A DNA stretch of 62,260 nucleotides, filler included, from Hausera hauseri (lineage: Eukaryota), in assembly GCA_046269625.1 (NCBI GenBank). It is 9 parts of 9 records of this genome, joined end to end, with 100 filler letters (N's around TTAATTAATTAA, not from the genome) between each part and the next. Parts side by side here need not be neighbours in the genome. Positions count along the whole stretch, not along the records: positions 27,226 to 36,672 come from JBJURY010377702.1; 8 more parts are not named here. One strand, 5' to 3'. Every line of letters starts with the position of its first letter. Position 1 is the stretch's first letter. The notes under the pieces are model-generated. The model searched no databases. It was not told the DNA's origin and saw only the letters and a program-made list of their open reading frames with translations. Positions 16,492 through 52,537 of the stretch are shown piece after piece. Made by a program: the position numbers and the translations under genes.

Positions 16492-19375
16492 AAGAGCAGT
16501 TATGATAGGAGTCTTTTCATACGTGCCATGTGTATAGTTTACGTCGAATAGGTAGGGTACGTTGTCAAATTTTTTACTCAGGAAGGATTTTAATAAGAGG
16601 AATCGTTTGAACGCTACTGTGTGACGCAGTGGGGTACTAAGTAATTGTGGTTAGAAAATAGATTGAAACACTCTGTTGTCGTTGGCATAATCAAATATGA
16701 GGGTTGCAAGGTTATGTCGATCATGGCGTATAGCGAGTAGTAAGGGAATGTCCCCATTTACGTTGAGTAGATGTAAGGGTGCTTGTGACTGAATGAGCAT
16801 GAGTATAAAGAAATTATGACATTCGCTCATAATGGCTAAGTGAATAATGGTATTGCCGTTTGTATCTTGGAATTTTAATGATTTAGCTGCTTCGGCGCCT
16901 TGTTGGGTAATGGCTTCCTTGACTCTTTCCTCATTTTCTGATGTTACTGCTAACATTAATGGAGTTGTTCCGGCGTTGTTTACTGTTGTGTAGTCCATTG
17001 GTTTAGCTGGTTTGTCGGTACATTCTACCATGTAACGTTCATCCTTTTGTAGAACTTGTTCTTCGTTATTTTCTATATAACGGTAGTACTCATCTTCCTT
17101 GATGATTGATAACCATTTTTCTTAGACGTAAATTTCGAAGTAATATTCCAGATTGGTTAGAGGAATTTTAAATGGCCTGTTATCAGGTGTTACTCCGCAG
17201 GAGGTTGTATATTTTTTCTTGCGTTTTCGTTGATATATACATGTAGTAATGATTGTCGATACGACAAGTGTTATGATGATGGGTTTGCTGTTATTTTTAG
17301 AAAAAATATGTCGTAGTTTGCTTGGGCTTGTTTCACTGATTCAACTAATGGTGATGTGACTGTCAGTGTACGATTGTCTTTAGGTGGAACGGTAAATTTT
17401 ATAAAAATGAATTTCCCTCCCTTCATTATTTCCTCGAATGTTGGAAATCGGAATAATGAATTTACTCCTCTTTTGAATGTATTGGCCTTCATAATGCAGC
17501 TGTTCTGGGTTTGCGAAACGGGTCGTAGTATGATAGCTGGATATGAGCTAAGTAAGAGTAACCGGATATTAATTGAGTGCATTCAACGTAGGTACTAGAG
17601 ATTAGAAAGCAAGCGTCATTGGCGTTTTCTAATGTGACGATAAAATCTGGATTGCGTAAACTGAACATTACACGGTCAGATCTCACCTGGAGATAAATAT
17701 TCAGTGGTATGAATGGAATTATTTTGATTCGTTTTGGGGTTTGTCGTAATCCTGCTATCAGATACGGAATTTTGTTATGTACAGAATAGTTGATACTACT
17801 CAACCAAAGGGTATTTGGACAAGAAGATTGTAATTGTAATGTTAGGAGTATTTGTCTATTGTCATGTTTCGTGCATTATATAGGAGGTCGTGAGATCGTG
17901 AACTCTAGGGTATACACCTCCTCTCTATTGCGTTTCGCAGCGCAGGACAGAGCGTAGTGCGCTCTACTAATTTGTCGTGCTACTACTAAAATTTCGTTTT
18001 CGTAAAATATGTTTGCATTAATTCCCGGGGTACGTGGGATTATTGGTGCTTTTCTTTCAATTCCTTTTACAGTACTTCTCCATATACCATTTACGAGATA
18101 AATATGGAGAATATTAGGGATTTTTCCTGATCTGAATGCGCAAATATGCAGGTTGACTGGTTGTGTTCCCTGGAGTGATGGATGTTGTTATTGTTGATGG
18201 ATGTATCGGCGTATCGGGTGGTTATTTGAATTACCCTTCCTTTTGGTATTTTTCTGCCCCACTCATTTGGTAGACATTGCTTCTTATAGTTATGTTGATC
18301 TATAAATATTCTTTCTTGTAACAACAATTTGTCGATATTGGTTTGCTCTTTTTGTTTCTGTGAATTATCTGTTAAGGATAACGTAACGGTCTTTTGCTCT
18401 GTGGGTATCATTATTTTAATCGTCCGGTTTTCAGAGACAGGCAGATCCTTGCTTCTTGATGAATGTATTTGTACTGAAAAAATAGATCCTTGGGTAACTT
18501 TAAAACAATTTTCTTTATTGGTTGAAGCAGAAGTAAACGCTATTTTTGATTGTCGGTAAAGCGTTAATGTTCCCCATTCTTCGTTCATAGATTAACCATT
18601 TTTCTGTTTTGTTCCGTTGAGGGGAGAATTTTATAAGTAGGCACTTTTTTACGGTTATACTGAATGAAAAGTTTTTTGGTGCAGTTTCTTGGATATCCCA
18701 GGGTTTTGTTTTAGGGCTTCTTTTCAGAAATTTCATGAAATCTGAAAATGTGTTTGGTAATACCTGATTAGACATGCTTGCAATTATTTTTTGATGGCTT
18801 GGTATTGGTTGTGTCGAAGAATTTGGTATATGGCAAACTAATATTCTTAGGGGTAAAATCATCCGTCGAGATTTTGAGCCAATTCGGGTTACGTTTGGCC
18901 TTGCGCCATTATAATTGAGGGGTTGATTTGTCAATCTAGTACTGAATCGTACTTTGCGGGTAGTGGAATGCTTTTCAGCAAGTCGTTATATTCTAATGCA
19001 TAGAATTAATACGGGTGTTAATATAATTGCGACGGCAACAGGGGGTATAATAGTTACTAGTAATAATGATCTATGGTCTAGATTTGCTATTTTATTTGAT
19101 GATTTAATTTTTGTTAATATTTCGTCTTTCCTGATTGTTATCAGAGGTTTGGTAGGGAAAGCATGTTGTTCCTCAGTTATAGTTATGTGATGTAAAGCCA
19201 TTGTTTTTTGTTTGAAAGACGGTTCATGAGGTTGGTGTATTATCTGTACCCAATAATAGGTTCTTGGGTCTAAGTTTATTTCATTTGATGGATGTATTTG
19301 TGAGTAGAAAACAGGTGACAGTAGCGTCGCCGAATGAAACAGTATAATTTTGATCAGGAAAATTGAATATGACAT
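16492..19375 (-). pseudogene. Decayed intronless membrane-protein cassette ending in TM segment and cytoplasmic ankyrin repeats
   Basis: Signal-like MSYSIFLIKIILFHSATLLS; TM LLLVTIIPPVAVAIILTPVLILCI; second TM IITLVVSTIITTCIY+QRKRKK (~17215-17280); ankyrin repeats GTTPLMLA, GNTIIHLA, GDIPLLLA and a further EKTPIITAL at the contig edge. Confidence 0.6.
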
Positions 19376-24654: not shown

Positions 24655-24782
24655 ACTTCTTACTCAGAGGTAATGCAATGGTCACACAAGAAGGAAAAAT
24701 TTGGATTCCAACATCGGTGAGAAGTCAATTTATTGAACACATCAGAAATCATTGTCATGCTGGAAGTAAGAAAATATATTGA
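24655..24782 (+). mobile_element. Gypsy integrase zinc-binding-domain fragment
   Basis: KIWIPTSVRSQFIEHIRNHCHAGSKK. Confidence 0.55.
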
Positions 24783-25083
24783 TACTCTATTGACTTATGT
24801 ACGAGTCTATTTGGGCCTAGTACATATAGATCATGCTGATCCTCCGGTACTGGATTCTCATCTGTTTCACTTTCTTCTTCGCCGTCATAAATCACTACTA
24901 TAGTGGTTCCTCTGGATTGATAGGAACTGGTCTTTCTTCGACAGAAGGGACACGTTTGGCTTTTTGATAACCATCTATCTGCACATTTGACACACATGAT
25001 GTGCGTGCATCGCAGCAATGCATAATTTCTTCCGAGCAGTCCACAGCATATTTCACATCGTAGTGGTGCATATCTGTCATCAT
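24755..25083 (-). pseudogene. RING-HC zinc finger fragment
   Basis: CTHIMCVKCADRWLSKSQTCPFCR; first Cys pair lies in another frame. Confidence 0.75.
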
Positions 25084-27225
25084 CTGAATTCCAAATTTAA
25101 GTAAGGATTTACCTTGAAATCATTGATTGTTTTAGCAATATGGTGCTCCTCACTCGGGGCACCAGTTTATATGTTATGTGTACAGGGGTTGTAATCAACC
25201 TTAAATAGTACTCAACATATAAATAATACGCACAGTGTACTTATGCTTTATAAATATTGATATTTATTTATGGGGTATATAATCGTGCTCCATGAACCCA
25301 TCAAAATCCATCTAAAAGTTGTTCATTGTGGGTTTTATTATTTTCTTCCAACTGAAGGTTGCTCGTGAGTTCCAAGATTCTCTTCCCTCTTCTGCGATCC
25401 ATTCCCGCTCATCCACTGGTGATAGATTTGTTCTGATGGTAATATTCGGCATGTCCAATCCTTGAATTTATGACATAGACCAAGGAATCAATATTTACTA
25501 TTTAGTGTCACTCTGTAGATTTATAAATACAATAGTTCACTAAAGGATGTTTTATAGCGTGTTCTTCTCATATCGAGGATTGTTGAAAGGTACATTCACT
25601 CTCATAATATATTCATGGATTACACTCAACTGATTTCCTCCTATAGATAGCTACTAATTTCCCTATTTCATAATCTCTTTTCTTTCTGGGTTAACTCTCA
25701 AACTTGCATTTTTGTAAAATACCCAAAGACCACCATAAAGTGACTCAACGAAATGTAATTCACTAAAAATTTAAAATTTAAAGAATGCAAATGAGTCTTA
25801 CTATGCTTAGACTAGTGCGAATCGTAACACATATTGCATATAAGAAGCTTTCCCATACTATTAATAAGACCCATCTACAAATGTGCAGAATTTCGCTTTC
25901 ACCAATGAATCGTTACCCAAGAAATATTTATAATATTAAAAAAAATGAAATGGAAATATTTATAATATTAAAGAAAATGAGATAGAAATATTCATAACAC
26001 TAAAGAAAATGAAATTCATCCCACATTACTTAAATAGTAATAGCTTAACATTTGTCTTCAATAAAATTGGTGAAATTTCTGAAACAGAACCTAACTCCTA
26101 CTACGTATTTTGACTTCCCTTTTTACTTTATTTTTACGGATAGTCACCTGACTACTGAACCACCATAATTGTAACCTTGTCCGACGCATGATTCGTCTTA
26201 CAATTCATTCAATTCTCACGACTCTCACGTACACCATCACTACGCAAGAAATTCACCTCTCCACAGGGGATATCGTAAAACTTTCATTATTGTACACCAA
26301 TCCCTACTAGATATCGGATCGAAACGCAGATGCTAGATGTTATGTAATCAGCAAAATTTGACCACCCCGGTTTACGATTTGCGGTATGTATAAATGTTTA
26401 ATTACTTTTCCTCAAATCAATGTGCTATATATGGTTTCTTCCATAGCGTTTTCCGTTATATTTTTGTATACTAAATGTTATACTACAAGCTTGGAAGTGG
26501 ATAACCACATCAAAACTCCTCGACACAATTTTAGTNNNNNNNNNNGAAAGAGATATCACAACATATACTAGGCCACTATAAAACGGATCTACAGACAAAC
26601 GAATATTTATATCCTCATTGAAGAACCCGTTATAAAAATATTTCATAATCGACCAAACAGCGTCTGAAGTTAAAAGGATCAAAGATAAATAAACAATACT
26701 ATCAGGTATTAGGTATACATTGTTCATTGCATCATTCGACTGCACTAACATTCCAAATTCTCAGATTCGATTATATTAATAATCTATTGTTTCATCCTTC
26801 CAGACTAGTCAAGCAACAGGGGGACTACTATCTAACTTTATGAACGAATTTTGCTGGTAAGTTGACAACATAATACTTCTATCTTTGGTAGTATTAACTT
26901 TCAAGTATTCATCAGCTCCAATATTACTCCGACTTCTACACAGTGCTAGTTATTGAACACTGCGAGACCATCACGTATCTATTATTAGCCATATTCTATT
27001 TGTCGGTATTTCAGCATTAATAGCAGAATTACACTAACCCTTGTTTATGTTATCACCACATGCATGAATCAATCAGCATCACACAATTAACGATGATCGA
27101 TGTCAAAACCGTAAGAGATGTACTANNNNNNNNNNNNNNNNNNNNNNNNNNNNNNNNNNNNNNNNNNNNTTAATTAATTAANNNNNNNNNNNNNNNNNNN
27201 NNNNNNNNNNNNNNNNNNNNNNNNN

Positions 27226-30200
27226 GACCGAGGCTATGAAAATAGAGCTAATCGCAGTATGAGGTATGATAATAGAAACTTTACTGATAATCGAAATACA
27301 TACAAAACAGGTTATAATCCGGATAGAAACCAAAATAATGACCGAAGTAACAAAAACCGATATCTAGATAATCGGAGTTTCGAAAATAGAAATAACGGAG
27401 TCAACAAATAGACTCAACCAGTTCAAAACAAAACAACAGGCAGACCCAAATCACCAGTGAACGAAGACGAACGACAAAGGATCGGCCGAGAAGGGAATCT
27501 GATTTGTTATTCATGTGGCAAGGAAGGACATATAGCTAGATCATGCCTTAATCTGCGAAGTGTATTATTTTCAGAGATCAGGAAAGCCAGTATGATAAAA
27601 GATAATTTGAAAAGAATATATGGAAAACAAGGTGATATAAGTATGATTATTGAGATGCAAGATCTACGAAGGTATATAAGAAATATGGGCGAATCTAGTA
27701 ACCCGCAAGTAGTTAAAGCCAGAAAGGAATATGAAGAAAAGTTGCAGCTAATGGAAGTTTATCATGGATTAAGAGAACCAAAAACGGAATACAAGAATGC
27801 TATAGCACCTAAGAATACTAATATGGCCATGAAAAGAAACCTAAATCAAGCAAAAAAGGAGGAAAAGCCGACGACGTCTCCAAGCGTAGACTTGAACGCA
27901 GACGCTGAGGTAGCGTCTTGAAACAAGGACAAGACAAAAGACGAGGTTGAAAGTGAATTCATTGGACCACTAATACTCAAGATAACAAAAAATAGGAGTA
28001 GAAGCTCTTCACTTAAGAGAAGGTCACGAACTCGTTCACGATCCCCTATTACAAAAGATTTAGAAAAGGAGGAAGATTTCACTATTACTTTAAGAGATTA
28101 AACAGAGTTAAATACTCCTGTTATAACCCAAGGCGTCCTGGAAACAACAGACATTTCGAATATCGATAAAATTAATGAAATATGTCCATTACCACTTAGT
28201 GAAGAGGAATCATAAGAGAAAAAGTCTACTAAATTAGGGAAGATTAGAAAATCCTGGTAAAACGCAAGAGAAATAACCAAAATAAGAGATGCACTAAATG
28301 ATCCCGAAAGGCTACAGGAGAGCTTACAAAAACTCCAGAAGATGAGCGAACAGTTGGATATCTCCGGAAAAGAACAACAATTTATAGAAAAGCTATATAA
28401 AAAGCTTAAACCCGGTTCTCAGAAAAAGGAAGAAAATACATCTTACGAACTGCAAGAAACGCCGAATGACTGGATAAAAAGTTGGAAAAATAAATTAGAA
28501 CTGTGGACAAGGAGTGGGATTGGTTTTACGAAAATATGGTGGAATAGAAACGAGCCCTTTTTCGAGCAAGTTAATCAAGCACAAGGACTATTAAACGCCC
28601 TAAAAGATAACCCAAAATTGAAACGCGTAAGACGTAATTTAGAAGGATTGCTATATGAGATCGAAGAAGCGATAATTTCTTATCTACATAATAAGTCAGT
28701 ATATAAACTGATTAATGCCGACCTAGAGATATTGGGTATAGACCAAATCGATATATTCCCTTTAATAACAATATACAGTCTGATAAAGGACCGCCCTCGA
28801 CAATATCCGGATTTGAAAATACGTATTGAAAGAGAAAAGGAAATACGAACCAGAATCAATGACTTAAGAATCGGCGTAGTTCACCCTGAAAAAGCAGAAG
28901 CACAGAGAATAATACGTGCTTGTCTTCTCGAATTAGATGAGTATAAAAAAGAATTCAACTATATGAAACATATAATAGAATTTGTACGAGGGCCAGATCA
29001 CGAACTAATGGAAGCTCTTGAGATATTAGACGATATAATCTACGCTAAACCGGCAATATCTGAACAAATTAAGAAGTGGGTAGACTTGTTACCTTCCATG
29101 GCAGAGATAATAAATAAAAGACTAAGAGAATTCGCTATGATTGAGCTTACAATGAGACACCAATTGGAAGAAATGTTACTAGATATGAGTACGATGGAGA
29201 ACGAAGCAAAATTTCGAATTAAATTTGAATCATTCCGAGAACTTGAATTTATGAGCAGGGATTAAGATCAAACGGCACTATCAGAGATATATAGTATAAT
29301 AGAGGAGAAGGAATTTTACAGAAATAGAAACAAGCTAAATGATCTTCAGCAAAGTTTAGCGAACATCCGTTGGGAAAGGATACAGAACCTAATGCAGAAA
29401 CCGTTGAATGAAATGTCATCACAGGAAATAGAAACATTAGAAGTATTTAACGATCACCGGATCGCTCTGGCGCAAACATCACAATATTTACAGAATCCAA
29501 CAGAATGAACACCAGGTTTCGATCTACATTGACACACCGAACTAACAAAAATTAGGAAGGATCTTCAGTTGACGAGCGACGAAGACAAGTTTATAGGCAG
29601 ATTAATGGACGCAATAGTTCCGGACGCTGAAGTATGAAATCAAATGCACAAATTAATTCTACTATTAACAGAAATAGCAGAAATTGACGAAGTAGTAGCC
29701 AAACGACTAAAAAGTCGAATACGCCTGGTAAAAGAAACCCGGTTATGCTCCGAGAAAAGATAACGCAAGCTAAACAAATTACTGAGAGAAGCAGAAGTCT
29801 ACAAGAACAAGTATTCCCTTACAGAATCTGAAATTAACGATAAAATGGAATTTATACGAAGATAGCAAAGGGACAGAATCGCAGAAGTAACTAACTACCA
29901 GGAGAAAGCCTTGATACAACCAGAAGAAATGTGCCGATTAATAAAATTGATACAACAAGCTTGTGGAAACGGCGATGGATTTAGGATATCCATAATGAAA
30001 ACATTGCAACCATAGATGAATGAACTACGCGAAAAAGTCCAGGTTGGACACGCAGTACGAATGAACTACAAGTTACCTGACGCAGGTAATGATGCCGAGT
30101 GGGATGAATACATCCAAGGTTTAACCGAACAAAATCAAAGAACTCCGGTACAAATTTATGAGTCACCTATTGTTACACAGAAGACAAAATGCAACGTGCA

Positions 30201-31224
30201 AATGCTACTTGATCCCACGCTAGCTGTAAAGGAATTGAGCAATGTGTTGAAAATAAACATAAGTGAAGAAAAGTTAAGGAAATTGATTCCAATCTTGACC
30301 AAACTATCCAGTGAAAACACCACTTACAGCGCTGCACCCAAGCTCTTAATAAGAGAATACGCCAAACTGTTGAAAAAAAACCAGAAGCGGAAATTAAAGT
30401 GAAAGTATCATCTGAAGGGATGGATGACGAGGCATTTGAATGCACTACCTACACCACAGTTGGAGATATAAAACAGCGGATAATGGATAAGGATAGTAGG
30501 AAAGGAGTTAATTATAGTCTGTATTTCAGAGGCAGGATATTAGACGAGCTAGAATCATTGACAGACGTAGGGATTATACCTCTCGAGGAAAATCGAATAA
30601 TAGCAATAATCATTAGTGAGCAAACTAAAGATGAAGCCATAAGAAAGGCACATACAGAGCATTACGTCGGAAGAATCATGGGGATTCAGGATGCCGCAAT
30701 GTACTTCGAATACTTACAGATTGATGAGGACAACCCGCAATACGATAAAAACTTAGTTCTCTTAAGTAAAACCTTACCACCGATGAAACCAAAGCGACCG
30801 GTCGGAAGACCAAGAAAAATGAAAGAAATCGACTATAACGCCGATCTGATTAGAGAATTATACCGGACATCAAGGCGATATATTATCCGAGAAAGAAAGA
30901 CTAATATATAATATAGCCCGGACAATGAAAACTTTGCGATTTAAATTATCTAAAAGCACTTTTCCTGACAAAACAATAATTGATAGAATTATGGTAGACA
31001 ATACAATGGAAAAATTAAGGAAAGTCTTAATATATTTAGCGGTAAGAACTAACCCTCTCCGCGAAAACGAATTTGACAAGACAATTGGGTTAGCTAGAAA
31101 AGCTGCAAGAATGGTACCTAAAGAGATAAAGTGGACGAAATTATTCGAAAAAGAGGAGGACGCAAAATGGACTAATAAGTTAGAGGACATGATACGAAAT
31201 ATCTCTCTGAACAAAGGAAACTAA
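27226..31224 (+). pseudogene. Partial copy F of giant Gypsy element: Gag end (CCHC) plus long extension with Ubl (30399-30620) and AT-hook (~30791-30817)
   Basis: CYSCGKEGHIARSC continues in frame into the extension; TVGDIKQRIMDKD...YSLYFRGRILDELESLTDVGI; KRPVGRPRK. Confidence 0.9.
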
Positions 31225-33180
31225 TCCAATTGGTTAATCAACTTGCTGACGATAATGATGCTAGTAAGGCAAATAGGAGTAGTCACTTTATACGATTGCG
31301 ACAATTTCAAGGTGGGTCAGAAATACTCCGTAATGGACTTAGAAACATGCGAAGATGCAAGACCTCATAAGCTCGAGACAACGGAAAAAAGGTATATATT
31401 ATATCAACAACGTGAATTAATCGCGATGGATGCGACGGAATGCATGATACGGAGATCTCGCCGCGTTTTTCATTGTGGTACTATGCACGGGCATTCTTCA
31501 ATAATCAAACCAACAACCCCATTAATCCCAATGAACGTGGACAGACAACACTGATTAGGAGCCCGCATGACCGGTAAAATGGTTTGGGACGGTATGGAGT
31601 TGGAAGCCCAAGAAGGGAAGATAATCAAAGCATACAAAGTGGCAGTTGGAAAATTGAACATGCACACCGGTTATTGTGTCGGAGTAGAATATGACACCGG
31701 AAAGGGAAAGGAAGAAGGAATAGTAGTCGTGGATTTTTACAAAACCGAGTTAAGATCCCTAAAAGCAATGTTTCATAGTGTTACCAAACTATTTACCGAA
31801 AATCAAAAATGTCACGTTCAAGACGGTGCTTGCATGTTCCGAATTTCAGTTGTTGTATGGAGCTCACCTTCCAAGAGAGATTTAATTTCATCAAAATCAA
31901 AGAGTTAAAGTTTAATGAGACAACTGGAAAACGTTATAGAAATAAGTTACACACAAATACCAGATCAAGGAAGACATAGTAGAACATCCCACACGAACGA
32001 TATTGATATCGGATGTACACGCATTAAAGGTTATTAGGAAGAATATGTTAACACGCTGCGATGTAGTTATGTATGCCACAAATTACGAAGTATTTTTCGT
32101 TGCAGAAATTGAAATCAACATGAAAATGTATGATTTAAAAACGCAAGATACAGGGATTGAAGATTACCTCAAAAATCGAGATGACTATTTCTATTACAAA
32201 GGACAGACCGGAATAGCAGAACTATACCACAAAATGATAACGCACGACTGTAGATTAAATATTGAAGTTATGCGAACCAAATTGGCCTTAATTTATGCCA
32301 ACCCAGAACTGGCATTACCAATTATAACAATAAAAGAAGGTGTCTTCAAACAAGTTACCGGAGAAGTCCTATTAACTTACAAATGCGAAAAAAGAGACGT
32401 GCCGATTAACGTGGAAGAAAAAAGATGCATGCAGGAATTACCAGTCATCTATGAGAATATGTCGAGACTAGCGATGCCACTCACCAGAGTATTACTGGAA
32501 AACTCGACCGAACCAAGAATATTCAAAAAATGCGAAACGAGCCTATGTGAACCCATGTTCCGACGCAGTAGAACCGACTGGATAAGTCTACCTAATGGAG
32601 GCGCTGCTGTAGTCCCTAGTAAGCTAACAGGGATCTAATCAAATGATTATTAGATTATTATTAATTATTATTAATGATTATTATTATTATTAATCTAATC
32701 AAAGGATTATTAGAGGATAAGTTCGAGGACACGGCCAATAAAGGAATTTATAGGCCAAAGGACACAGAAGCCTTTAGGCAATTCGTAGCCTTTCCGCGAC
32801 AGAGAACTTATGATCTGAATCGGGCCATGTCAATGGTCATGGATGACACCCGCTTCCAAGCGAAATGAGAATCGTTACTTGGTGCTAATCACTATCAAAG
32901 AGTAACTTCAGAAATACTGTATAAGATTTGGGGCAGGTTTCTAATCTTCGGACAAGCTGCATCTGGATTCCTAGCCATCTGCCTTTTAGTCCAGTTAATT
33001 AAAGCAGTAATCCAAGCCGTTATGAACGGATATGAAATATTCACATTAACAGGATTTTCCTGCAAAATATTAAATTCAGTTATCACACCATTTAGAAAAA
33101 TACTTAAGGCCTACGAAAAATATCGATGGACGAATGACGTAGAACGCCACGTCGGGTACTATAATCGCAAACGGCGACAG
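31225..33180 (+). pseudogene. env: Chuvirus-like (class III, gB-like) envelope glycoprotein, copy F
   Basis: Hydrophobic signal then VTLYDC; ECMIRRSRRVFHCGTMHGHSS; GEVLLTYKC; CMQELPV; GIYRPKD..FP; TM WGRFLIFGQ...NGYEIFTLTGFS. Confidence 0.8.
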
Positions 33181-35060
33181 AGAGAGAGACAGATGGAGAG
33201 AAAGAGGGAGACAGAGAGAGACAGAGAGAGAGACAGCGACACAGACAGAGAGAGACAGAGGCACAGAAAGAGAAACATAGAGAGACAGAGAGAGACAGAG
33301 ATAGAGATAGAGAGATTGACAGAGAAAGAGAGACAGAGAGAGACTGCGAGAGAGAGAAAGAGAGAGAAAAACAGAGATAGAAACAGCGAGACAGAGAGAA
33401 AGAGAGAGATAGACAGAGACAAAAAGACAGAAAGAGAAAGACAGAGAGAGACAGAGTGGGAGACACAGAGAGAAACAAAGAGAGAGACAGAGATAGAGGG
33501 AGACAGAGACAGATAGATAGAAAGAGAGAGGCAGAGAAAGAGAGACAGAATGAGAGACAGAGAGAGACGGTGAGAGGGACAGACCTAGACAGAGACAGAG
33601 AGACAGAGATAGAGAGAGACAGAGAAACAGACAGTGAGAGAGAAAGAGAAAAAGAGAAAGAGAGAGAAAGACATAGAGACACACAGAAAGAGCGAAAGAG
33701 AGAGAAACAGAGAGAAAGCCAGAGAGAGCGACAGAGGCAGAGGCAGAGAGAGAGACAGCGAGATACAGAGAGAGACCGAGAGAGACAACGAGGGAGACAG
33801 AAAGAGAGACAGAGAGGCAGAAAGAGAGGGACAGAGTGAGACAAAGACAGAGAGACAGAGATAGAAAAAGAGACAGAGACAGAGAAACATAGATAGACAG
33901 AGAGAATGAGACAGGGAGAGAGACAGAGAGAGGGAGAAAAAGAGAGAGACAGAGAGATATAGACATAGAAAGAGACAGAGGGGAGACAGAGCGAGAGACA
34001 GAGAGAGACAGAGAGAGAAATACATAGAGAGGCACACAGAGAGATAGGCACAGAAATAGCCAGAGTGCGACAGAGAGAGACAGATAGATACAGGGAGAGA
34101 GAGAAAAACATAGACAGAGAAAGAGACATAGAGAGAGAGAGAGACAAAGAAAGAGACAGATAGAGAGACAGAGAAATACAGTAAAAGACAGTAAGAGACA
34201 GAGATAAAGGAGAGACAGAGAGAGACAGAGGGAGACAGAGAGACAGAGACAGAGAGAGACAGAGAATGAGACAGAGATAGAGACAAAGAGAGGGAGAAAC
34301 AATGAGAGAATGATAGAGAGACAGAGAGTTATAGACATAAGGAGAGAGACAGAGAGAGAAATACATAGACAGAGATTGAAAGAGAGACAGAGAGATAGCG
34401 AGAGAGAGCGACAAAGAGAGAGACAGAGAGGGAGCGAGAAAGACAGAGAGAGACATAGAGAGAGAGAGAGACAGCGAAAGAAACAGAAAGTTATAGACCT
34501 AAAGAGNNNNNNNNNNNNNNNNNNNNNNNNNNNNNNNNNNNNNNNNNNNNNNNNNNNNNNNNNNNNNNNNNNNNNNNNNNNNNNNNNNNNNNNNNNNNNN
34601 NNNNNNNNNNNNNNNNNNNNNNNNNNNNNNNNNNNNNNNNNNNNNNNNNNNNNNNNNNNNACAGTAGGAAAGACAGAGAGAGAGACAGGGAGAGAGACAG
34701 GGAGAGAGAGACAGAGAAAGAGCGAGATAAACAGAGAGAGACATAGAGACAGAGAGACAGAGGTTGAGACAGAGAGAGAGAATCAGAGAGAAAGACAGAG
34801 AGAGACACAGAGAGAGACAAAGAGAGAGAGACTGAGATATAGACAGAGAGAGACAGAGCTAGAGGGACAGAGAGAAACAGAGAGAGACTGAAAGACAGAC
34901 AGAGAGAGAGACAGACAGAGGGACAGAAAGAGTTAGACAGAGAGAGACAGAGAGATAAAAAGACAGAGAGATAGAGACAGCGAGAGACAGAGAGAGACAG
35001 AGAGATAGAAACAGAGGAAGAGACAGAGAGAGATACCGAAAGAGACAGAGAGGGAGAGAC
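33177..35060. repeat. Degenerate (AG)n/(AGAC)n microsatellite, ~1.9 kb including N gap 34507-34660
   Basis: Continuous GAGA/GACA arrays. Confidence 0.97.
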
Positions 35061-36772: not shown

Positions 36773-37160
36773 CCTTTTATTTTGTGTATCGATTTCGTGT
36801 AACCAGTTGATTATTAATTCGATACCGCGGTGTATCCAGTGGAATACTTAATTGTTTTTGTTGTAAAAATACTTGTTATTTAAAACTTCTTATATAGTTT
36901 GCCATTGCCCCATAAGGGTGATTAGACTACACTAAGGTCTAAAATCCTACTGTAAAATCACAGTTAAGACGAGAATATTGTTAAACGTTTTTCACAGGAC
37001 CGCAAGATAGTACCATAATTACTGAACTAAACTTATTGAAATAAGGCACAATCTGTGTATGCGATAGCGATAGACCTTACTTGTATTAAGGTACTCAAAT
37101 CTCGGTTGTAACTATTGTTATATAGTGGGAGTTGTATAAGGGCCACCTTAATATATAACA
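36773..37160 (+). repeat. 5' LTR (3' part; start cut by contig edge)
   Basis: Ends TATAACA before the PBS; alignable to ~52255-52535. Confidence 0.88.
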
Positions 37161-37162
37161 TT

Positions 37163-37180
37163 TGGCGACCCTAGCAGGAC
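37163..37180 (+). promoter_or_regulatory. Primer-binding site, probably tRNA-Arg
   Basis: TGGCGACCCTAGCAGGAC 2 nt after the LTR; complement GTCCTGCTAGGGTCGCCA resembles the T-stem/acceptor/G-CCA end of animal tRNA-Arg. Confidence 0.85.
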
Positions 37181-37319
37181 AGATTAGTACCTCGCTAGAC
37201 TTTACTTCAGCTGAGAGTTAATTAACTACATACCGGCAATCAGCGCCACTTGCACCGAGTAATTGAATACAATTTGAGATTTAAAATTTCGGGTTATAAG
37301 TTTGGCAGGATTTAAAAAC

Positions 37320-38135
37320 ATGATTTATCAGAGAACAAATATTGATAAGTTCAAAGTGAACCTTGATTTAAACGATAAGGAAAACTTGCCTATACGCCAG
37401 AGGCGTAGAAATACATATAGGGATAATAAAAATTTGGATAAACATTCATTTTCTAAAACTAGTGTAAATTCAGTTAATACAGATTAACCGCCGTTGAGCG
37501 AACCGATAAGTTTAAAACTCCTCTTGTGAAAACTAAAGTTAATAAAGTAAATTTTGAGACTAATTGCGTAAATAATATGGCAGAAAATAACCCAACAGTA
37601 GCACAAAAGCTAGACATCTTTACTTTTGATTCTCTGAATCTTCCGGCATATAATGATGATCCGGACGGATTAAATGAATTTTTGAGAACTTATAAATTGC
37701 ACACAGAAGGTGTCAGTCTTAATCCTGAAGTAATTATTAAACGTTTGTCGACATATTTGAAGAATTTAGCGGCTGATGCTTACAGCGAGCTCACTAATGA
37801 TGAAAAGAATTCTTGGTCCATCCTGATAGGAGCATTGAACCGAAAATTATTGCCGAAAGTAACACCGCAACAGAAACTTATGCCTTTTCAGAATAGGATG
37901 CCAACCAGTAACCCAGTTTGCATTTGCATTGAAGAAACCCTCTAATAGTTATGTAAGTACATTGAGAACAGTCAACGTGGCAATAATATAAGGTTCGCCG
38001 AACCAGTACAATAGAAGCGCAAATAGGTCTAAGTCACCTGTGAATGAAGACGGTCGACAGAGAGGCGACGGGAATGGAAATTTAGTTTGCTTTACCTGCG
38101 GTAAAGAAGGACACATTGCCAGGTCATGTCCGAAT
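37320..38135 (+). pseudogene. gag: gag (capsid and CCHC), with ~0.5-kb internal deletion relative to copy I
   Basis: LPAYNDDPDGLNEFLRTY, YLKNLAADAY, SWSILIGAL, CFTCGKEGHIARSC. Confidence 0.88.
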
Positions 38136-41100
38136 CCGCATAGCGTCTCCTTCACCGAACCTAGTAAGACTAGTATGATTAAAGTCAATGAGAACTTAGA
38201 AGCGAAATATGGTGTTCGTGGTGATACAGGTACTATTATCGACATACAGGATTTGCTGAAATTTTTAGATGCTCAAGCGGAAACTACTAATCCACAAATT
38301 CTGACGATCAGAAGAGAGTATGGAGATAAGCTAAGACTGTTAGAAGTTCATCATGGTTTTTCAGAACCAGAAACTGAATATACTATGCGATCGCACCTAA
38401 GAGAATTGAGGTGACACGGAAAAAGAGTGTTCCCATGAGTAATAAAATAGCAGATACACCAGGAACTTCGACAGAAGTCGACTTAGGTGCAAAACCTGAG
38501 TTCACAATCAAAAAAGTAGATAAGACTACTAAAGTAGAAATAGCCGAAAAAGAATTCATGGAGCCATTGATACTTAAAATTATGAAAAATAGAGGCCTCG
38601 GCCCCTCTCTGAAAACGAAACGTAGGAGACGTTTAAGTTCGTAGGTACCTGGAGAAAAAATAGAAGAAACGAAAAATACGAACATTGATGCACACAACGA
38701 CGTAGAGCCTATCTTAAATACGCCAGTAATTGGCCAATTTACACTCATCGAGGCAAAAGAATCGGTAGAGTCAATTATGGAAATTAACAAAATTTGCCAA
38801 CTTTCCACTAATGAGGAAAAAACGGGAAACATTGATGAATCTGATCCAAGAAAATGGAAAGTCATATGTTCATGGAAAAACACCTATGAATTAAAGAAAA
38901 TGAGAATTAGATGTCACGGTCCAGAAACATTACGGTGTAATTTGGACAGACTTAAGTAGATTAGCGAACAAGTAGATATATCCGGTAAAGAGCAACAATT
39001 TGCTGAGAGGTTATATAAAAGTTTAAAATTATGTAGCAAAGGAAAGTTAGATGAAGCAATCGACTTAGGACAACTTAAAGAAGTACCATCTGAAACGTTG
39101 TCAAAATGAAAGCGTGAATTAGAAACATGGATTAAAAGTGGAGTCGAATTTTCGGAAGGATGGAGCAAGAATGAAGATAGTGTAAGATAGATAAAGCTCA
39201 GACGCTACTATCTACCTTAGAAGTAAATCCAAAACTGAATAGAGTAGTCCGTAATTTAGAGCGTACAATGGATGAAATTCGCTATGCAATAATTAATCGG
39301 CTTAGAGAAAAACCGGTTAACCATCGAAGTAACGTTGATTTACAGATATTGTGTATAGACCCAGTAGATATTCCTCCCTTAATGGCGATAAAAATCGCCT
39401 TCGCTATACCCAAACAATATACAAACCTAGAGGATCGTATCAAAATAAAAAATGAAAAGCGAACCCAAATTTTTAGTTTGAGAAACCGAATTGTTTCTAA
39501 ATAACGAGGAAACCAAAAACGTAATAAAAGCTTGTATCGTAGAATTCGACGAATATGAGGATGAGTTCAATTATGTCAGCCAGATCATAAATTTTATAAA
39601 GGGTATGGATGACGAATTAAAGGATGCATACAAGATGCCAGACAAATCTATATTGGCAAAGCCAATAATCGCCAATCAATTGTCGGAATGGTCCTATTTA
39701 ATAATGAGACTAAGCACATTAGTAGAAAATCGTAAGAAAGAATTTCCAGAAAGCAAACCATCGGTAAAAAGGCAATTAAAGGAAAATGCACGTAATTTGG
39801 ATACAATACAAGCAGAAATAGACATCCGGACGCAATTCGAAACATTACGACGACTAAACTTTATGAAGAATCAAGAAACGAAGATACTGGAAGAGATTTA
39901 TAAAATGATCGTCGAAACAAACTTTATAGAAAAGCGAAATATGATTTGTGATTAATACCCAAGGTTAAGAAACGTCTGACTAAAAGGAGTCCAACATTTA
40001 ACAGATAAACCTGTCGACGAAATTTCAATCCAAGATATCGAAACCTTAGATATTTGTCCGGAACATAGAGCCGCTTTAGAGGAAGCATTAAAATTCTTGA
40101 ATAAATCACAAGAATGGATGGCCGGAACTGATCAGTATTGCCATACCGGGTTGACAAAAATAAGAAACAACCAACATCTTAGTTTTGAAGAATCTAAGTT
40201 CGTAAAGAAATTGCTCAATGCAATAGATCTCGACTAAAATTATAAATGAGCTGTATGAGTTAGCCTTCCTGTTAGTAAAAATGGCAGAGATTAATTATGA
40301 GAAGATGAGGCAATTAATTCCCAAATTACGACAAGTCGAAGAAACGTGCATTAGAACCAAACAAAAGGCAACGAGGTTAGACGAATTAGTAAGAGCTCGA
40401 AATCTACCTGAACAAATATGCTTTTACCGAATCAGAAATCAAAAATAAGCGAGAATTTGTACAAAGATGGCAAAGAGATGTAATTATTGAACTAACTGAT
40501 TATCACTAAAAAGGATTCATCAATTCTAATGAATTAGGCGAACTACTGAAAATGATTAAGTATGTCTGAGGGAACGGAATAGAATTCCGGATCACACATA
40601 TAAAAGAAATACAGCCAAGGATAAAAGAGATTCAAGAGAAAATACAAAAGGCAAATACAACACTAGTAAACTATGGACTTCCAGACGTTGGAAATGAACC
40701 GGAATGAAATGCGTACTTAGATGCGTTAACGACCGAAAATCCTGTGACTCCAGTACAGCTAAATAAAATAGAAACGTGTCCGCAGAATAGAAGATTCGAT
40801 GTGGAGATGTGCCTGGATTCAGCGCTAACTGAAAAAGATTTAATTAAACTAAATAACGTAAACATTACTGAGAGTAAGTTAAGACAACTTATTCCGACCT
40901 TGACTAAATTATCCAGTGGGAGCACAGTTTATAGCGCGGTGCCGAAACTTTTGATAAGGAAATACGATAAAATCTTGAAAGCTAAACCCGAGGTAGTGAT
41001 GAAAGTAATGGTACCATCCGAGTGGATGGATGAAAAAGAATGTGAGCTAACTACTTATTCCTATGTAAGGGACGTAACAGAATGGTTATTAAACAATGGC

Positions 41101-41937
41101 GGAGCAAACGAGTTAAACTATAGATTCTATTTTAGAAGTAAAATATTAGACGATTTAGAACAGTTAATAGACGTCGGGATTATCCCAGACAAAACAAATC
41201 AAATAGTGGTGATAGTAACCAATGAACAGACTAAAGAAGTCAACCGTAAGGCTAAGACAGAACAATGAGTACGGCAAATCATAGGAGTCCGAGACGCTGC
41301 AATGTATTTCGAGCATTTACAAACGGATGAGGACAAGGAACAATAAGACAAGAATTTAGTGCCACTGAGTGAAATAATAATCAATGTCCCTAGGCCGAAG
41401 CGTACAGTCGATAGGCCTAAGAAGACGCGACAAAAAGTTCGCTATAACGGAGAATTGATTAGAGAATTAAGACAAATGTCGATACCTACCTTCAACACAA
41501 ACAACAAAGAATTAACTGAATTAATGAAGAATTTAATACGTATTGTAAATTATTCAAGCCTCCGAGGCGACACATTAGATGATAAAGAAAAAGTGATATT
41601 TGATGCAGCTAGGATGATGAGTTCACGTTTCAAATTATCAAAAAGCAACCTGACCAATGAATCGGTAATCGAAAAGATCATGGTGGAAAACACCATTGAA
41701 GAATTAAGAAAGGTATTACTAGACTTAGCTATGAAAATAAATCCCAGTCAAGAAAACGAAATTAATAGAGCTACAAGCTTGGCACAAAGAGCTGCTAGGA
41801 ATTTACCCTGTAAAGTAAATTGGTCAAAATTATTCCATAAAAAACGCAAACGGCCCGGAAATAGCAATAGGCTTGAAGATATGCTACGTAATTTAACAAC
41901 GACAGATAATAGTAACCGAAAAAACGAATCAAAATGA
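38136..41937 (+). pseudogene. Long Gag extension: SR-rich, helical/coiled-coil-like, ubiquitin-like domain (~41000-41220), degenerate AT-hook (~41398-41424)
   Basis: In frame with CCHC; collinear in four copies. Confidence 0.8.
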
Positions 41938-44357
41938 CTAATCAGCTTATTCACCTTAATGATCCTAATAAAGCATATAGGCGCTGTTACCGTCCATGAC
42001 TGAGATAAGTTTAAATTAGTACAGAAATGTTCTCTAATGGATCTGCAAGTGTGCGAAGATGCCAGACCGCACAAGTTAGAAACGAGAGAGAAAAGTTATT
42101 TTCTGTACTGACAACAAGAATTGATATTATTAGATGGAATGGAATGTATGCTGAGACGATCTCGTAGCATTTTTCACTGTGGGCCAATGCACGGACATAC
42201 TTCAATAATCAAACCAACAACTCTTCTGATCCCAATGAATTTGGAACGCCAGCATTGTAAGCTGGCCAAGGAAACCGGAAGATTAAAATGGGATAGGATG
42301 AAACTAGAGAATCAACCAAAAAAGATAATTAGGGCATACAAAGTAGTGGTCGGACGGTTAGACATGCATAACGGACATTGTAGTGGAGCGGAATACGACA
42401 CCGGAAAAGGATTAGAAGCAAATGTATTGGTCGTAGATTTCTATGAATCGGAGATGCAAGTACAGAAAGTAATGTTCCATAGTGTCACCAAACTATATAC
42501 CGAGAATCAAAAATGCCATTTACAAGACGGAACCTGTGCCTTCAGAAGTTCTGTTATAATGTGGAAACCTCCCTCTGGAAGAAACTGTAAATTTATCAAA
42601 ATTAAGGAATTGAAATTTAACAAAACTACCGGAAAACGATATGTAGATAAATCAGACACCAACTCAAGGACACGCGAGGATGTAGCAGAGCACCCTACAC
42701 CTACTATATTAATCTCTGACCAGCATGGGCTAAAATTCATCAAAAAAGAATGATTTCTCGTTGTGAAGTAGTGATGTTCGCCACCAATTATGAAACATTT
42801 TTCGTTGCAGAAACGAAAATAAATGAGAAAACGTACAAGCTAGAAAAGCATGACATTCGGATTGAGGACTACCTGAAAAACCACGACGATTATTTCTATT
42901 ACAAAGGGCAAGTTGGAATAACCGAATTATATCATAAAATGATAACGAACGATTGTAAATCAGATATGGAAATCATGAGGACAAAACTGGCTCTTACACT
43001 AATCCCGAGTTGGCATCCACAATAATTCGTATGAAAGAGGGAATTTTCGGTCGAGTTACCTGTGAAGTCATATTAACTTACGAATGCGAGAAAAGGGATG
43101 TACCAAGCAACGTTAAAAAAACGTTGCATACAGGAGCTTCCTGTTATTTACCAGAATACTCCAAGGTTAGCCACGCCAATCACTAGAGTGCTATTAGAAA
43201 ATGCAACTAAACCGACAATCCTTAAAGATTGTAAGGAAAGTTTAGGAGAACCCATGTAAAGGCGTAGTGAAACGGATTGGGTTAGTTTGCCAAATGGAGG
43301 TATTACTGCCGCTCAAAATAAACTAACAAACAAATCTTGCAAAAGGAATTACCAACGACAAATTTCAAGACACTTCATCAAAAGGCATATATAGGCCTAA
43401 GGAAATCGAAGCTTTCAGGCAATTTATCGCTTTCCCGCGACAACGGACATACAAATTAAATCGAGCCATGGCCTCCGTAGTAGATGATACTCGATATCAA
43501 GCAAAATTGGAATCATTAATCGACGTAAATCATTATCATGGAGTAACCACAGAAATCCTCTACAAAATTTGGGGAAGATTCCTAATTTTTGGACAAGTTG
43601 CATCTGGATTTTTAACAACATATTTCCTAATACAGATGATTAAGGTATTCATCCTAGCAGTGATAAATGGGTATGAAATATTTACGTTGACCGGATTTTC
43701 ATGTAAAATACTGACTGCAATTATAACGCCCTTTGGAAAGTTATTGAAAGCATATGAAGAAAATAAATGGAAATCGGACGTAAAACGCCACGCCGGGTAC
43801 CACAACCGTAAACGAAAAAGAAGATCTATGCTCTTATACAAGCGGAGGATCACAAAACCTAATACACGAAGGAATAATTCAGATGATGACAAGCCTAAGG
43901 AAGAAGTACTTTCAAAAATAGACAGGCACAAGACGTATTCCGTCATTAAAGCACTATTGTCTATGCTACCCCCTACTGCTCCAGTCTACGAAGACTGTGA
44001 CAAACGATCAATGAGCTCGTATCAGATAGAAATCTATAAGACAATTAGTTTAGAAGACCCCTACGAAGGAAGAAAAGTTATCGAGTCCTACGAAAAATGT
44101 GTTATCGACAGCCCATGGATGACCCCAGAATATTGTATTCCCCGAGAGAACCTCGGAATATAGAGACTAGATCACCTGTCTAAGATAATTCAAGGTTAAG
44201 AACCTTCCGGAATATAGAGTCACACACGAACAATCGAAAACCATTAATTAATACTCATGAAATAAAAGAATTAAATATCGAAAACAATGAATTATATCCT
44301 AACGAAGAATTAAGACAATTATCGGAAAACAGTATTCTCCCCAGAAATCCGAATTAA
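41938..44357 (+). pseudogene. env: Chuvirus-like envelope glycoprotein with TM and long cytoplasmic tail, copy G
   Basis: LISLFTLMILIKHIGA-VTVHD; ECMLRRSRSIFHCGPMHGHTS; IQELPV; TM at ~43570-43730 followed by NRKRKRR. Confidence 0.8.
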
Positions 44358-47300
44358 CGGGCATAAAATATCAGCAACTAAACGCCAAAAAGTTGCATCA
44401 AACTGTTTTGGAACAGTAATAGAAGGAAGACCCTTCGCCAAAATCATTATTGAAAAATAGGAAGTTTATGCATTAATCGATACAGGATTTGAGATGTCTT
44501 ACATCAAAAATGATTTAATACCTCAAACGCTAAGAGGACAATTATACCCACCATCTACAAAAGACCCAAGCAATACAAGAGTTTTTGGCCAAATGTCGAA
44601 ACCGATGTTCAAATGGAACCCAGAAGTTCAAATAGTTGGACAATTTTTCCGTCACGAATTTGCAGTTATAGAACAATTAACTGACGACGTGATTTTAGGG
44701 TGTGATCTACTAAAAAGACTATCGAATATAGCAATTGACTTACAAACGGGAAAATTAATACAAATTAAACCAAATAGAGGCGTAAAAAACACTAAGGATA
44801 GAAAATTTGGAGAAGTATGGATACCAGTAAATGAAAATATTCCACCGAGAACGGAGATAATAATTTACGCTCAGGTTCAACAGGATGACGATAAACCGGT
44901 ATATATCAAACCAAAGGAGATATTAAATCTGAATATAATACTTAGTAACATACAGACAAGAGTACACTCCGGTTGTGTGCCGATCAGGATAGCAAATAAT
45001 GCACCGACCCCCGTGAAGCTTCATGCCTATACAACTTTAGGGGATACATATAGGGTGTTTTCTATAACTATTGAAAAAAACCTTACAAGTATGCTGAATT
45101 CCCACCTCATGCTAAAACTAAGTTTCCCCCCCCCAATCTTATTGTCGATTCTATGACAATAATTATGTCGCTAAGTCGATTATTGCTAAAGACGACGAAG
45201 ACGTTGGTAGGGCAAAGGCATTAAAATTAACTATTCCGCTTAAGAAAAAGCCTGGCTCGAATGAAGAAATAGATTTCGAAGATCAAAAAATTCTGAAATG
45301 GTATCTCCGACCACATTCATTAAGACCCGAGATAACAAAAGAAGTGGAACGGATGCTTAAGATCGATATAATTAGGCCAAGTTATGGATCGTGGTATTCA
45401 CCAATCCTCATGGTTAAGAAGAAATGGACTATAAAACATCGATTCTGTATTGACTACAGAGCATTAAATAATCTTATGATAAAAGATTCTTTTCCACTGC
45501 TATTAGTAAAAGAGGCTATAGATAGGCTCTCAGGAGCAAAGTGGTTTACCACTCTGGACTTACAATCCGGGTATTGGCAAGTAGAAATTGAGGACGAAGA
45601 CCGATATAAAATAGGATTCAAGACACAAAATGGTGTTTATAAATTCAACGTCATGCTGTTTGGTTTTACTACCGGGCCGGCCATATTTACAAGGATGATG
45701 AACAAAATGTTATTGGGGTTAGATCATGCTTTTGCATACTCAGATGATGTAATGATAGCGTCCAGAACGGAGAGGGAACACCTGAAGGATATTGAACACA
45801 CGCTGATGCGACTAGAACAGGCCGGATTGAAATTAAATCCGAAATGTAAATGGGCTCAGAACAAAGTATCCTACCTTGGCCATATAGTTGGAAAAGGAGG
45901 ATCAAAACCAGATAAATCGTTATTGAACAAAATATCAGATTGCATGGAACCACAAAACCAGAAAGAGTTAAGGCATTGGCTAGGACTCTGCAGATATTAT
46001 GCCACTTATGTGCCTAGGAAAGGAATTAAATGGAAATGGACAGACAGAAAGCTTTCGACGAAAAGAAGATATTAACAAGAGAATCGGTTTTACGATACTC
46101 AAACTTTAACTTACCCTTTATAATCAAGACAGTTGCCGGTAAAACAGGCATTGAATACGAATTAGCACAAAAAAGAGAAGATGACAAATTAGAACACCCA
46201 ATTGCTTATGGAGGACGTTCCTTAAAGAAGGTCGAGAAAAACTATTCTGTCACCGAATTAGAAACTTTAGTCGTAAAAGAAGTGCTTCGACATTTCAACA
46301 TTTATGTGTATGGGGAGAAAATCATAATTGTTACTGATCATAAAGCCGTGACTACCCTAAAAGGACGAGCGAGTAATCCAACATGCAGACGTAATAGATG
46401 GATCGAAGAAATCTCTAGATATAATATCAAATTTCAGTATAAGCCAGAAAATAAACATGTTGACGCCGATGCACTATCAAAATTAAAGACCAAAACAAGT
46501 GCAGTCACTGTAATGAAGAAGTCAGCTTGAAGAAATAATAGATCGCCAACGCACCTTAACGATGGATAAAGCGATTAAAGTCTCAGCCGAACAAAGGAAG
46601 GATAGAATTATCCAGAACATTAAAGAATTTGATAAGAGGGACATAATACCAAAAGGACGACAATTAAAGAAACAACTATGTAGGCATGGATATAAATACT
46701 GCGTTCTGAACAACAAGAGCCTAAGAAACCTTCTATATTATGAACGAAAAGGAAGAAAACTAATAGGTATTCCAAAAAACTTACAAAATGAAGTTTTGAT
46801 GTCGGAATACAATTCATATTTGGCAGGACATATGTTCTGGAGGAAAACATTAGAATGAGTATTAAACAAATACTTTTGGCCCAACATTTATATTGATGTA
46901 AAGAATGGGGTAAATGCTTGTGAAGTATGTGCGACAAAGCAAAAGAACGAAAAAGTATATGGAGGAACTGAAACCAATCGACACACCGGACAGACCCATG
47001 CAGGCCATGCCAATGGATATCGACTAACTCATTTTGTTGAGTTGATAGCGCTAATTGATCAAAAAGCAGAAACCTTGGCCGAAGCCGTAGTTAGAAGAAT
47101 CATTTGCCTATATGGACCGCCAGACCAAATATCGACAGATCGAGGAAGAAATTTTACCACTGAACTATTCGAGAAGATTAGCAAAATATTTGAAATCGAA
47201 AGGTTAACCACAACTGCGTATCATCGTCAGTGCAATGGAATGGTTAAACGAATGAATGCAAATGTCATATGCATACTATCAACCGTAGTAGCCAAGGACC

Positions 47301-47800
47301 AAAATGATTAGTACGAATTTTTAGAAGGAACTCAATTTGCAATTAATACCGCTGCGCATCCAGCAACATGATTTACGCCAATTTTCATGATGTATGGACG
47401 TGAAGCTGTGTTACCCGCAGACTTAGGAATGACACCATACACCATCAATCCCGAAAATTTAGAACAAAACTTTGCAGAAGTATTGCAAACGTGACTACAA
47501 AAATGTTGGGAAATCGCCAAGAAGTTGCCCCAAGAATAACAAGAACAGTTTAAAAAGCAATATGATAAGGAAGCGAAACCGCATGATCTAGAACAGGGAA
47601 ATTGGGTCTATCTCCAATATTCAGCAGCCAAAAAAGGCACGTCATTAAAACTGACTCGTACAGGCAGAGGACCGTACGACGTTACCAGGGTTACTCCAAC
47701 CACAGTGCATATTAACAAAAACAGGAAAGAAGTCGTATCGGTGCAGAGTCGTTAAGACAGAGATACGGCCCAATAAATATTACAATTTACGTCAACGCGA
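44341..47800 (+). pseudogene. pol: pol: aspartic protease, RT, RNase H, integrase (Ty3/Gypsy order)
   Basis: ALIDTG (44479), ILGCD; WYSPI, FCIDYRALN, LDLQSGYWQV, YSDD; YSVTELE, TDHK, DADALS; AGH, CEVC, TDRGRNF, CNGMVKRMN, GPY, YNLRQR. Confidence 0.95.
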
Positions 47801-49236: not shown

Positions 49237-49320
49237 CAATTACAGAGCGGGTTATTCTGTCATCAAATGAAGAATTGGTTTTATTTTAAAACCGTTCTCT
49301 ATTGTAAGAGTAATCCGTAT

Positions 49321-49353
49321 TGTTTATTTTTCAGAACTGAGATCCACAAAATG
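49321..49353 (+). promoter_or_regulatory. Putative splice acceptor followed by ATG of the 3' ORF
   Basis: TGTTTATTTTTCAG (AG at 49333-49334) in an otherwise A-rich strand, then CACAAAATG at 49351. Confidence 0.5.
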
Positions 49354-52535: not shown

Positions 52536-52537
52536 TT

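Follow-up and report, generated by a model that had tools for sequence, protein, structure and literature searches.

How one chain could give rise to Gag and Pol in the cytosol and to Env in the lumen, and where an excess of Gag would come from, is the question raised by this locus. A sequence-only reading of the same DNA had proposed that Gag, an extension and Env were one polyprotein with an internal signal peptide. Our analysis of the window (the whole stretch of DNA that was analysed, 62,260 nucleotides with filler) makes it probable that the locus holds a decayed, high-copy Ty3/gypsy element with gag, extension and env in one frame, Env being likely freed by host signal peptidase at the internal signal. 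From the CCHC knuckle onward, a single frame takes in a ubiquitin-like domain (Ubl) and a hydrophobic stretch before entering a chuvirus-type Env, with pol downstream.

The window consists of nine contigs, joined by 100-base N44-TTAATTAATTAA-N44 spacers at 4194, 8630, 16392, 22109, 27126, 36673, 52601 and 58026. Because these spacers separate the contigs, copies F, G, I and B represent distinct loci and adjacency across the joins is meaningless. Comparison of the window with itself revealed one element in four copies, B (4548-8629, minus strand), F (27226-33175), G (36773-52600) and I (58126-62260), none of which is intact. In a four-way alignment, pairwise identity was 55-75% among all copies and 64-75% among G, B and I. 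The full plan is found in copy G: an LTR-like end with primer site, gag, CCHC, extension, Env, protease, RT, RNase H and integrase. The features from gag to Env are the following.

4548-8629, minus strand: copy B, with the gag end, CCHC, extension, Ubl and start of the helical domain, truncated ahead of the signal (self-comparison)
27505-27546, plus strand: copy F CCHC knuckle, in frame with the extension (PF00098, E 1.3e-5)
27547-30398, plus strand: copy F long helical extension, coding (divergence 0.57-0.58 at third versus 0.27-0.30 at second codon positions)
30399-30575, plus strand: copy F Ubl (PF00240, E 0.001, below the curated cut-off; ubiquitin chains matched in the PDB)
30850-31140, plus strand: copy F helical domain, probably Bcl-2-like (45% identity to the copy G domain, from which the fold evidence comes)
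31222-31224, plus strand: copy F in-frame stop just 5' of the signal, private decay (alignment, family contigs)
31234-31281, plus strand: copy F predicted internal signal peptide, with a hydrophobic core at 31234-31266 followed by the cleavage region (hydrophobicity)
31282-33175, plus strand: copy F Env, a chuvirus-type class III fusion glycoprotein with a TM at ~32968-33024; broken, and cut at 33176 by a GA repeat (PF24664 in four pieces, best E 2e-19)
37577-38129, plus strand: copy G gag start to CCHC, ~480 bp shorter than in copy I (Pfam, self-comparison)
41488-41850, plus strand: copy G helical domain, probably of Bcl-2 fold (structure search)
41935-41937, plus strand: copy G in-frame stop just 5' of the signal, absent from most of the family depth (X1 contigs)
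41938-41985, plus strand: copy G predicted internal signal peptide, with I-G-A at its end (mean KD 2.90, the highest in 40501-42750)
41986-44160, plus strand: copy G Env ectodomain, TM (~43609-43665) and tail; broken (PF24664, best E 1.4e-21)
58378-62260, plus strand: copy I gag, CCHC and extension up to the contig end (self-comparison, Pfam)

This is a Ty3/gypsy retroelement; its Env, which stands between gag and pol, is of the chuvirus type (gB-like). The protease-RT-RNase H-integrase order and the gag, with its capsid region and CCHC, are those of Ty3/gypsy elements (Metaviridae), and the gB/chuvirus-type Env with signal and TM, in the order gag, env, pol in copy G, is that of gB-type errantiviruses. 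PF24664 describes the Monjiviricetes (chuvirus-type) fusion glycoprotein. PF00098, the CCHC profile, was matched in four copies, PF03732 was matched weakly in copy I (E 0.044), and the capsid part of copy G matches the Gag of two relatives, P0004 and L002. At 90% likeness, 18,809 contigs of run X1 fell on copy G, with a summed depth of hundreds to thousands over the coding part versus 32-68 over 49445-51556. This depth, which is not a copy number, points to a large, high-copy family. Run X1 possibly has the same source as the window, and the junction test made with it reaches G-like copies only.

The proposal of one polyprotein had started from two stops ahead of the signal, read as NKGN-stop-SNWLINLLTIMMLVRQIGVVTLYDC in copy F and NRKNESK-stop-LISLFTLMILIKHIGAVTVHD in copy G. 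Both readings were correct: copy F has a TAA at 31222-31224 and copy G a TGA at 41935-41937. As had been claimed, the two do not overlap; in the alignment they are offset by three codons, opposite the stop of either copy the other one has a sense codon, and the frame is unchanged, the only gaps between F and G within 31140-31300 being of 3 and 12 nt. Among the 153 X1 contigs at the G junction, 30 have the third letter of the G stop altered into a sense codon, and these hold 549.8 of the 593.1 summed depth (93%), which is thus without the G stop. No indel reached a share of 15% or more among the 153, and no difference was listed in the X1 family contigs at G 41926-41928, the codon aligned with the F stop. 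Both junction stops are private decay.

A count of codon columns over the aligned window copies gave the same picture for the whole stretch between Gag and Env. None of its 1,895 columns in the coding frame of copy F has a stop in all copies, in comparison with 82 and 21 such columns in the two other frames. At least one copy has a stop in 54 of the 1,895 aligned codons, of which 48 concern a single copy. Of the six columns with a stop in more than one copy, four fall at misaligned ends or at frame changes of copy F itself, and the two that remain are at 28483 (three of four copies) and 29902 (two of four). Divergence was 0.53-0.64 at third and 0.10-0.30 at second codon positions in nine of ten regions, including the signal, for which F and G differ by 0.23/0.14/0.59 at the three positions over 22 codons. 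The exception is the 28-codon linker ahead of the signal, with 0.54/0.32/0.43. The CCHC knuckle had been said to run in frame into the extension in F, G and I; this holds for F and I, as well as for the fourth copy, B, but in G it holds for only ~95 codons, after which the frame changes. The single Gag-extension-Env frame itself is borne out by the copies, by the family contigs and by unbroken relatives. It is highly improbable that env was once a separate ORF and that decay brought the junction into frame by chance: both junction-spanning copies do have a stop at most 10 codons from the signal, but these stops are unaligned, that of G is missing from the family, and the relatives are open across the junction.

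One stop stands apart from these, being common to three copies.

39107-39109, plus strand: TGA of copy G, common to G, B (7199-7201, minus strand) and I (60396-60398), with a sense codon in F (four-way alignment)

This TGA, ~340 codons downstream of the CCHC, may be either a mutation hot spot or a read-through site. If it was inherited, it would be a read-through site with Gag excess, contrary to the 1:1 ratio of Env to Gag inferred in the sequence-only reading. Programmed read-through at G 39107 in the G/B/I lineage would stop most translation after a Gag of ~670 aa and keep the extension, Env and Pol far below Gag. We regard this as unlikely, even though it would solve the Gag:Pol ratio problem. 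The same TGA in three of four copies at an identity of only 64-75% and the codon-position constraint that persists downstream speak for it. By a rough estimate, such a triple would arise by chance in a few percent of cases. Nevertheless, the codon is a sense codon in F, L002 is free of a stop, the codon class is the one most often hit by stops (8 of 50 copy-codons, including these three), copy B has a further such stop seven codons on, and neither the downstream structure (consensus energy -2.4 kcal/mol) nor the downstream bases are conserved. A second aligned stop, a TAA, is common to G (40507) and B (5788, minus strand), with sense codons in F and I.

An HMMER search with the junction protein of copy G yielded 36 matches. 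In fourteen of these relatives the ORF of the signal extends at least 100 aa ahead of it, and six of the fourteen include a CCHC; 13 others start 0-99 aa before the signal and nine inside or after it. Against one polyprotein, it could be argued that 22 of the 36 start less than 100 aa before the signal or inside it, making free env ORFs possible; the relatives are, however, gene-caller products, many on short contigs, and the short ones, which may be fragments or called starts, are uninformative. The sequence-only reading had called for an intact copy; among the relatives, L002 has a single frame of 3,703 codons that spans Gag, the extension, an internal signal, Env and Pol. Its order is Gag, two CCHC, Ubl, signal, Env, TM, two protease-like domains, RT, RNase H, integrase, second signal and second TM. 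L001, which is open at its 5' end, resembles L002.

The suggested ancestral ORF of roughly 2,400 aa fits the distance from Gag to the Env tail, ~2,320-2,360 codons by the coordinates of the copies, but the product was probably longer, because the frame enters the protease in 9 of the 17 longer relatives scanned, four of which continue to RT and integrase in one ORF, and in L001 and L002. Against such continuity, the Env-to-protease stretch of copy G (44161-44428) has several stops in the Env frame; it is covered by G alone, and Env and protease are in the same frame on either side of it. From these reading frames, the polyprotein probably continues into Pol. The nematode ERVs of Sacco et al. 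2022 reportedly have a continuous gag-env-pro-pol ORF.

Word-index searches gave no close relative with the junction protein at longer lengths or with the helical-domain alignment of the window, and with the P0004 region they gave only P0004 itself and P0003. Locus scans gave none in metagenomes (single-protein query), viral sequences or prokaryote genomes, and a further scan gave two loci. One relative, P0009 (HBK71150.1), is a 2,627-aa Env-Pol polyprotein; its record lists it as a hypothetical protein from a Flavobacteriaceae MAG, where it is probably eukaryotic contamination. Two or three aspartic-protease-like domains stand in tandem after Env in P0006, P0008, L001 and L002. Between these domains L001 has an extra signal-ectodomain-TM unit, which resembles its own post-integrase unit (E 1e-4 to 5e-4, in a set of seven sequences). 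A separate exonuclease ORF (PF00929) lies downstream of the polyprotein in L001 (10617-12107, E 1.4e-5) and in L002 (12085-13473, E 1.1e-3), both being whole-protein E values.

With regard to the signal, its hydrophobic core is the most hydrophobic 11-mer of 30850-31908 in copy F (mean KD 2.55). Small residues at -3 and -1 are the cleavage rule of signal peptidase. With the cut assumed to lie five residues before the first conserved Cys of Env, the residue at -1 is small in 15 of the 16 long relatives (the 14 with at least 100 aa upstream of the signal, L001 and L002) and that at -3 in all 16, and the upstream flank is net positive in 14. Copy G fits the pattern, and copy F has a Val at the assumed -1. 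The internal signal peptide of the sequence-only reading is thus upheld by hydrophobicity and by the cleavage-site pattern in 15 of 16 relatives, whereas the peptide and its cleavage keep the standing of predictions. An uncleaved signal-anchor, with Env staying joined to the upstream part or being freed by the element protease on the cytosolic side, seems improbable to us. The Val of copy F would fit it, and the accessible part of PMC13524379 describes gB-type ectodomains that have either a signal peptide and a TM or two TMs at their flanks. The core is short, however, the best 19-mer reaching 1.9-2.0 versus 2.55-2.9 for the 11-mer, and the -3/-1 pattern and the spacing to the first Cys are the same as in the stand-alone glycoproteins P0035 and P0038.

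In the sequence-only reading, Env would be produced at Gag stoichiometry and with no env splice. A continuous frame could also be combined with an Env made mostly from a spliced or subgenomic RNA, as in retroviruses, starting at a Met near the signal. F and G have a common Met, 15 and 19 codons ahead of the hydrophobic core, respectively, at which a subgenomic Env could start, and the 13 relatives that start 0-99 aa ahead of the signal would agree with this. Only 6 of the 16 long relatives, in contrast, have a Met at most 20 aa ahead of the core (distances span 5-220, and several have one within the core), and the linker and the upstream domain were kept coding and in frame. No pyrimidine-rich yAG acceptor was found within 300 nt upstream, the highest value being 0.53 among 6 sites in F and 0.47 among 9 in G. 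Spliced or subgenomic Env therefore has a low probability in our view.

Release of Env from the polyprotein by signal peptidase, which we consider probable, would proceed as follows. Gag and the extension would be made by the ribosome in the cytosol, and the hydrophobic stretch would then enter the ER membrane co-translationally, N-in/C-out. The cut by signal peptidase would fall some five residues ahead of the first conserved Cys of Env, the ectodomain would pass into the lumen, and the TM of Env would serve as stop-transfer. Judging from the relatives, protease, RT, RNase H and integrase would be translated next on the cytosolic side, and a second signal and TM after the integrase would yield a further membrane protein. 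The products of Gag and Pol would be freed by the element's own protease. After cleavage, the probable Bcl-2-like domain would keep the signal as a C-terminal membrane anchor. A more far-reaching version, which is possible but doubtful, holds that one polyprotein makes four passes through the ER membrane (at the signal, the Env TM, the second signal and the second TM), that the Env signal is the tail anchor of a captured Bcl-2-like protein, so that cleavage would give a fusogen and a membrane-anchored apoptosis regulator together, and that the post-integrase product is a separate attachment protein.

The extension of copy F gave no Pfam match in 27922-30015. After the Ubl it has a KRPVGRPRK motif (~30792-30818), which we take to be AT-hook-like. 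For the helical domain that follows, position and the Burro precedent make a Bcl-2-like nature fairly probable. Pfam Bcl-2 matched four of the seven members of a mixed alignment (best E 3.1e-5), copy G not among them; these four are taken to be the four relatives in that alignment. The G model, built on this mixed alignment with Bcl-2-like relatives, has a mean pLDDT of 59.6 (70-80 in the core). The best 24 matches of a VIA search with it were all Bcl-2-fold chains (top Z 8.4, rmsd 3.5, 113 residues aligned), although a Z of about 8 is moderate among helical domains and the mixed alignment could have imposed the Bcl-2 fold on the model. Foldseek placed the Bcl-2 family in 16 of the best 17 matches, none at an E of 0.001 or below. 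With the mixed profile, Bcl-xL was outranked in the PDB by OspC, Nta1p and a hypothetical protein. A window-only profile matched no Bcl-2 in the PDB, and the window-only model reached a mean pLDDT of just 35. Comparison of window and relative profiles of the helical domain gave no significant match, and the ESM Atlas no usable one. A BH2-like Trp lies 28-64 residues upstream of the hydrophobic core in all eight sequences measured.

Downstream of Env and at the element ends, copy G shows the following.

36867-37175, plus strand: LTR-like end, then primer-binding-site-like sequence TGGCGACC at 37163 (self-comparison)
44428-47750, plus strand: pol in gypsy order, namely protease, spacer, RT, RNase H and integrase; broken (Pfam, alignment)
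47655-49236, plus strand: post-integrase coding stretch with a weak signal-like segment, a domain, a Thr-rich stalk and a TM (~49087-49143) (hydrophobicity)
52240-52600, plus strand: second LTR-like end, with the same primer-binding-site-like sequence at 52538 (repeat comparison)

The spacer between protease and RT is homologous to that of L002 and L001, and no Pfam dUTPase match was found on either side of this comparison. The post-integrase layout is the same in L001, L002, P0006 and P0009. The stretch of copy G itself had no match in Pfam or the ESM Atlas and no significant similarity to the counterparts in the relatives (best E 0.012, in a set of seven sequences). A repeat of 79% identity is found at both ends of the contig of G; both repeats run through the primer site, and their flanks, where a target-site duplication would lie, are hidden by the contig ends. 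These end repeats were rejected as the two LTRs of G, as the primer site lies inside both. We read 52240-52600 as the head of a following unit rather than as a plain closing LTR; the distance from primer site to primer site is 15,375 bp. The low-depth stretch at 49445-51556 sits between the post-integrase TM and this second LTR head with its primer site, and could represent unique cargo carried within a terminal repeat, or else a tandem junction.

The sequence-only reading had implied that env in frame with gag was new. This layout has already been published for Burro/GYPSM1: in the accessible part of the account by Arkhipova and Yushenova (2019, PMC6431247, citing Grohme 2018 and Jurka 2007), these giant gypsy elements of planarians (Dugesiidae) have an env that lies between gag and pol in the same frame, preceded by Ubl and BCL2. 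Also shared with Burro, as far as that text goes (PMC6431247), are the Gag with CCHC, the long accessory region with Ubl and then a domain that in our element is probably BCL2-like, the mononegavirus-like Env in frame with gag and ahead of pol, the decayed high-copy families and the protease-RT-RNase H-integrase order. The in-frame env-pol of Burro is seen in the relatives; in copy G, a single copy, 44161-44428 is broken. The order of Ubl before the probable BCL2-like domain recurs in the window, with the Ubl match below the cut-off, and in L002. According to the same part of PMC6431247, Burro exceeds 30 kb, encodes 4,873-5,140 aa and has two or three CCHC, whereas the unit described here is ~15.4 kb from primer site to primer site, with ~3,500-4,000 codons and one CCHC. 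Burro also has MATH, BIR and ankyrin domains (PMC6431247); the pieces of our element gave no such Pfam match, although decay could hide weak ones. The Burro text further places a dUTPase-like domain between protease and RT and, in its accessible part, makes no mention of signal peptides, topology or a post-integrase membrane protein (PMC6431247). Given that two Burro features, size and MATH/BIR/ankyrin, failed, we have chosen to file the element as a Burro-like GAG-ENV-POL gypsy element, not as Burro proper.

Chary and Hayashi (PMC13524379), in the portion available, describe GAG-ENV-POL errantiviruses of the gB type (HSV/gB) in Nematoda, Bryozoa and Platyhelminthes. They share with our element the Ty3/gypsy pol, the gB-type Env with signal and TM and the gag-env-pol order. 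That set requires intact ORFs, in contrast to the window copies, and the available text neither states a single gag-env frame nor mentions Ubl or Bcl-2 (PMC13524379). The Schmidtea ectodomain rows of its supplement 2 share motifs with P0003, P0008 and L001, as judged by eye from unaligned sequences. The non-canonical nematode ERVs (Sacco et al. 2022, as cited in the available part of PMC13524379) have env ahead of pol, as here. Atlas virus (Belpaoviridae) likewise has its Env within a single polyprotein, of 2,828 aa; it is a BEL/Pao element with a class II Env at the polyprotein end after Pol, whereas the present element is of gypsy type with Env before Pol (PMC9094657, accessible part). Anakin has a chuvirus-type glycoprotein in an LTR element, as here, but is BEL/Pao (PMC7642597, accessible part). 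A BEL/Pao element with Env of the Anakin or Atlas type was rejected for the window, as Env precedes the protease and pol matches gypsy-type profiles.

With the single-frame gag-env layout already on record, what is new here is a smaller, high-copy Burro-like family, and the Burro-like plan recurs in many unannotated contigs. We found no published account of the predicted internal signal, the possible Bcl-2 tail anchor or the putative post-integrase membrane protein, which Sacco 2022 or Grohme 2018 may already describe. A further question is whether such elements produce a Bcl-2 mimic with a tail anchor, together with a second surface protein. The questions of mechanism can be addressed by observation in planarians, in which Burro RNA goes up on loss of SMEDWI-2 (PMC8532177, accessible part).

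Several other features of the window were noted. Ankyrin-repeat and RING-finger fragments lie on other contigs, at 16651-17121 and 24755-25096 (minus strand), respectively, and the L001/L002 search gave no link between them and the element. A degenerate GA-rich tandem array (33176-35060) interrupts copy F within the Env tail. Fragments of alanyl-tRNA synthetase and Frizzled genes (9908-11340 and 12818-15130) stand just ahead of an unrelated gypsy pol on the same contig, and the Frizzled fragments identify the host as an animal.
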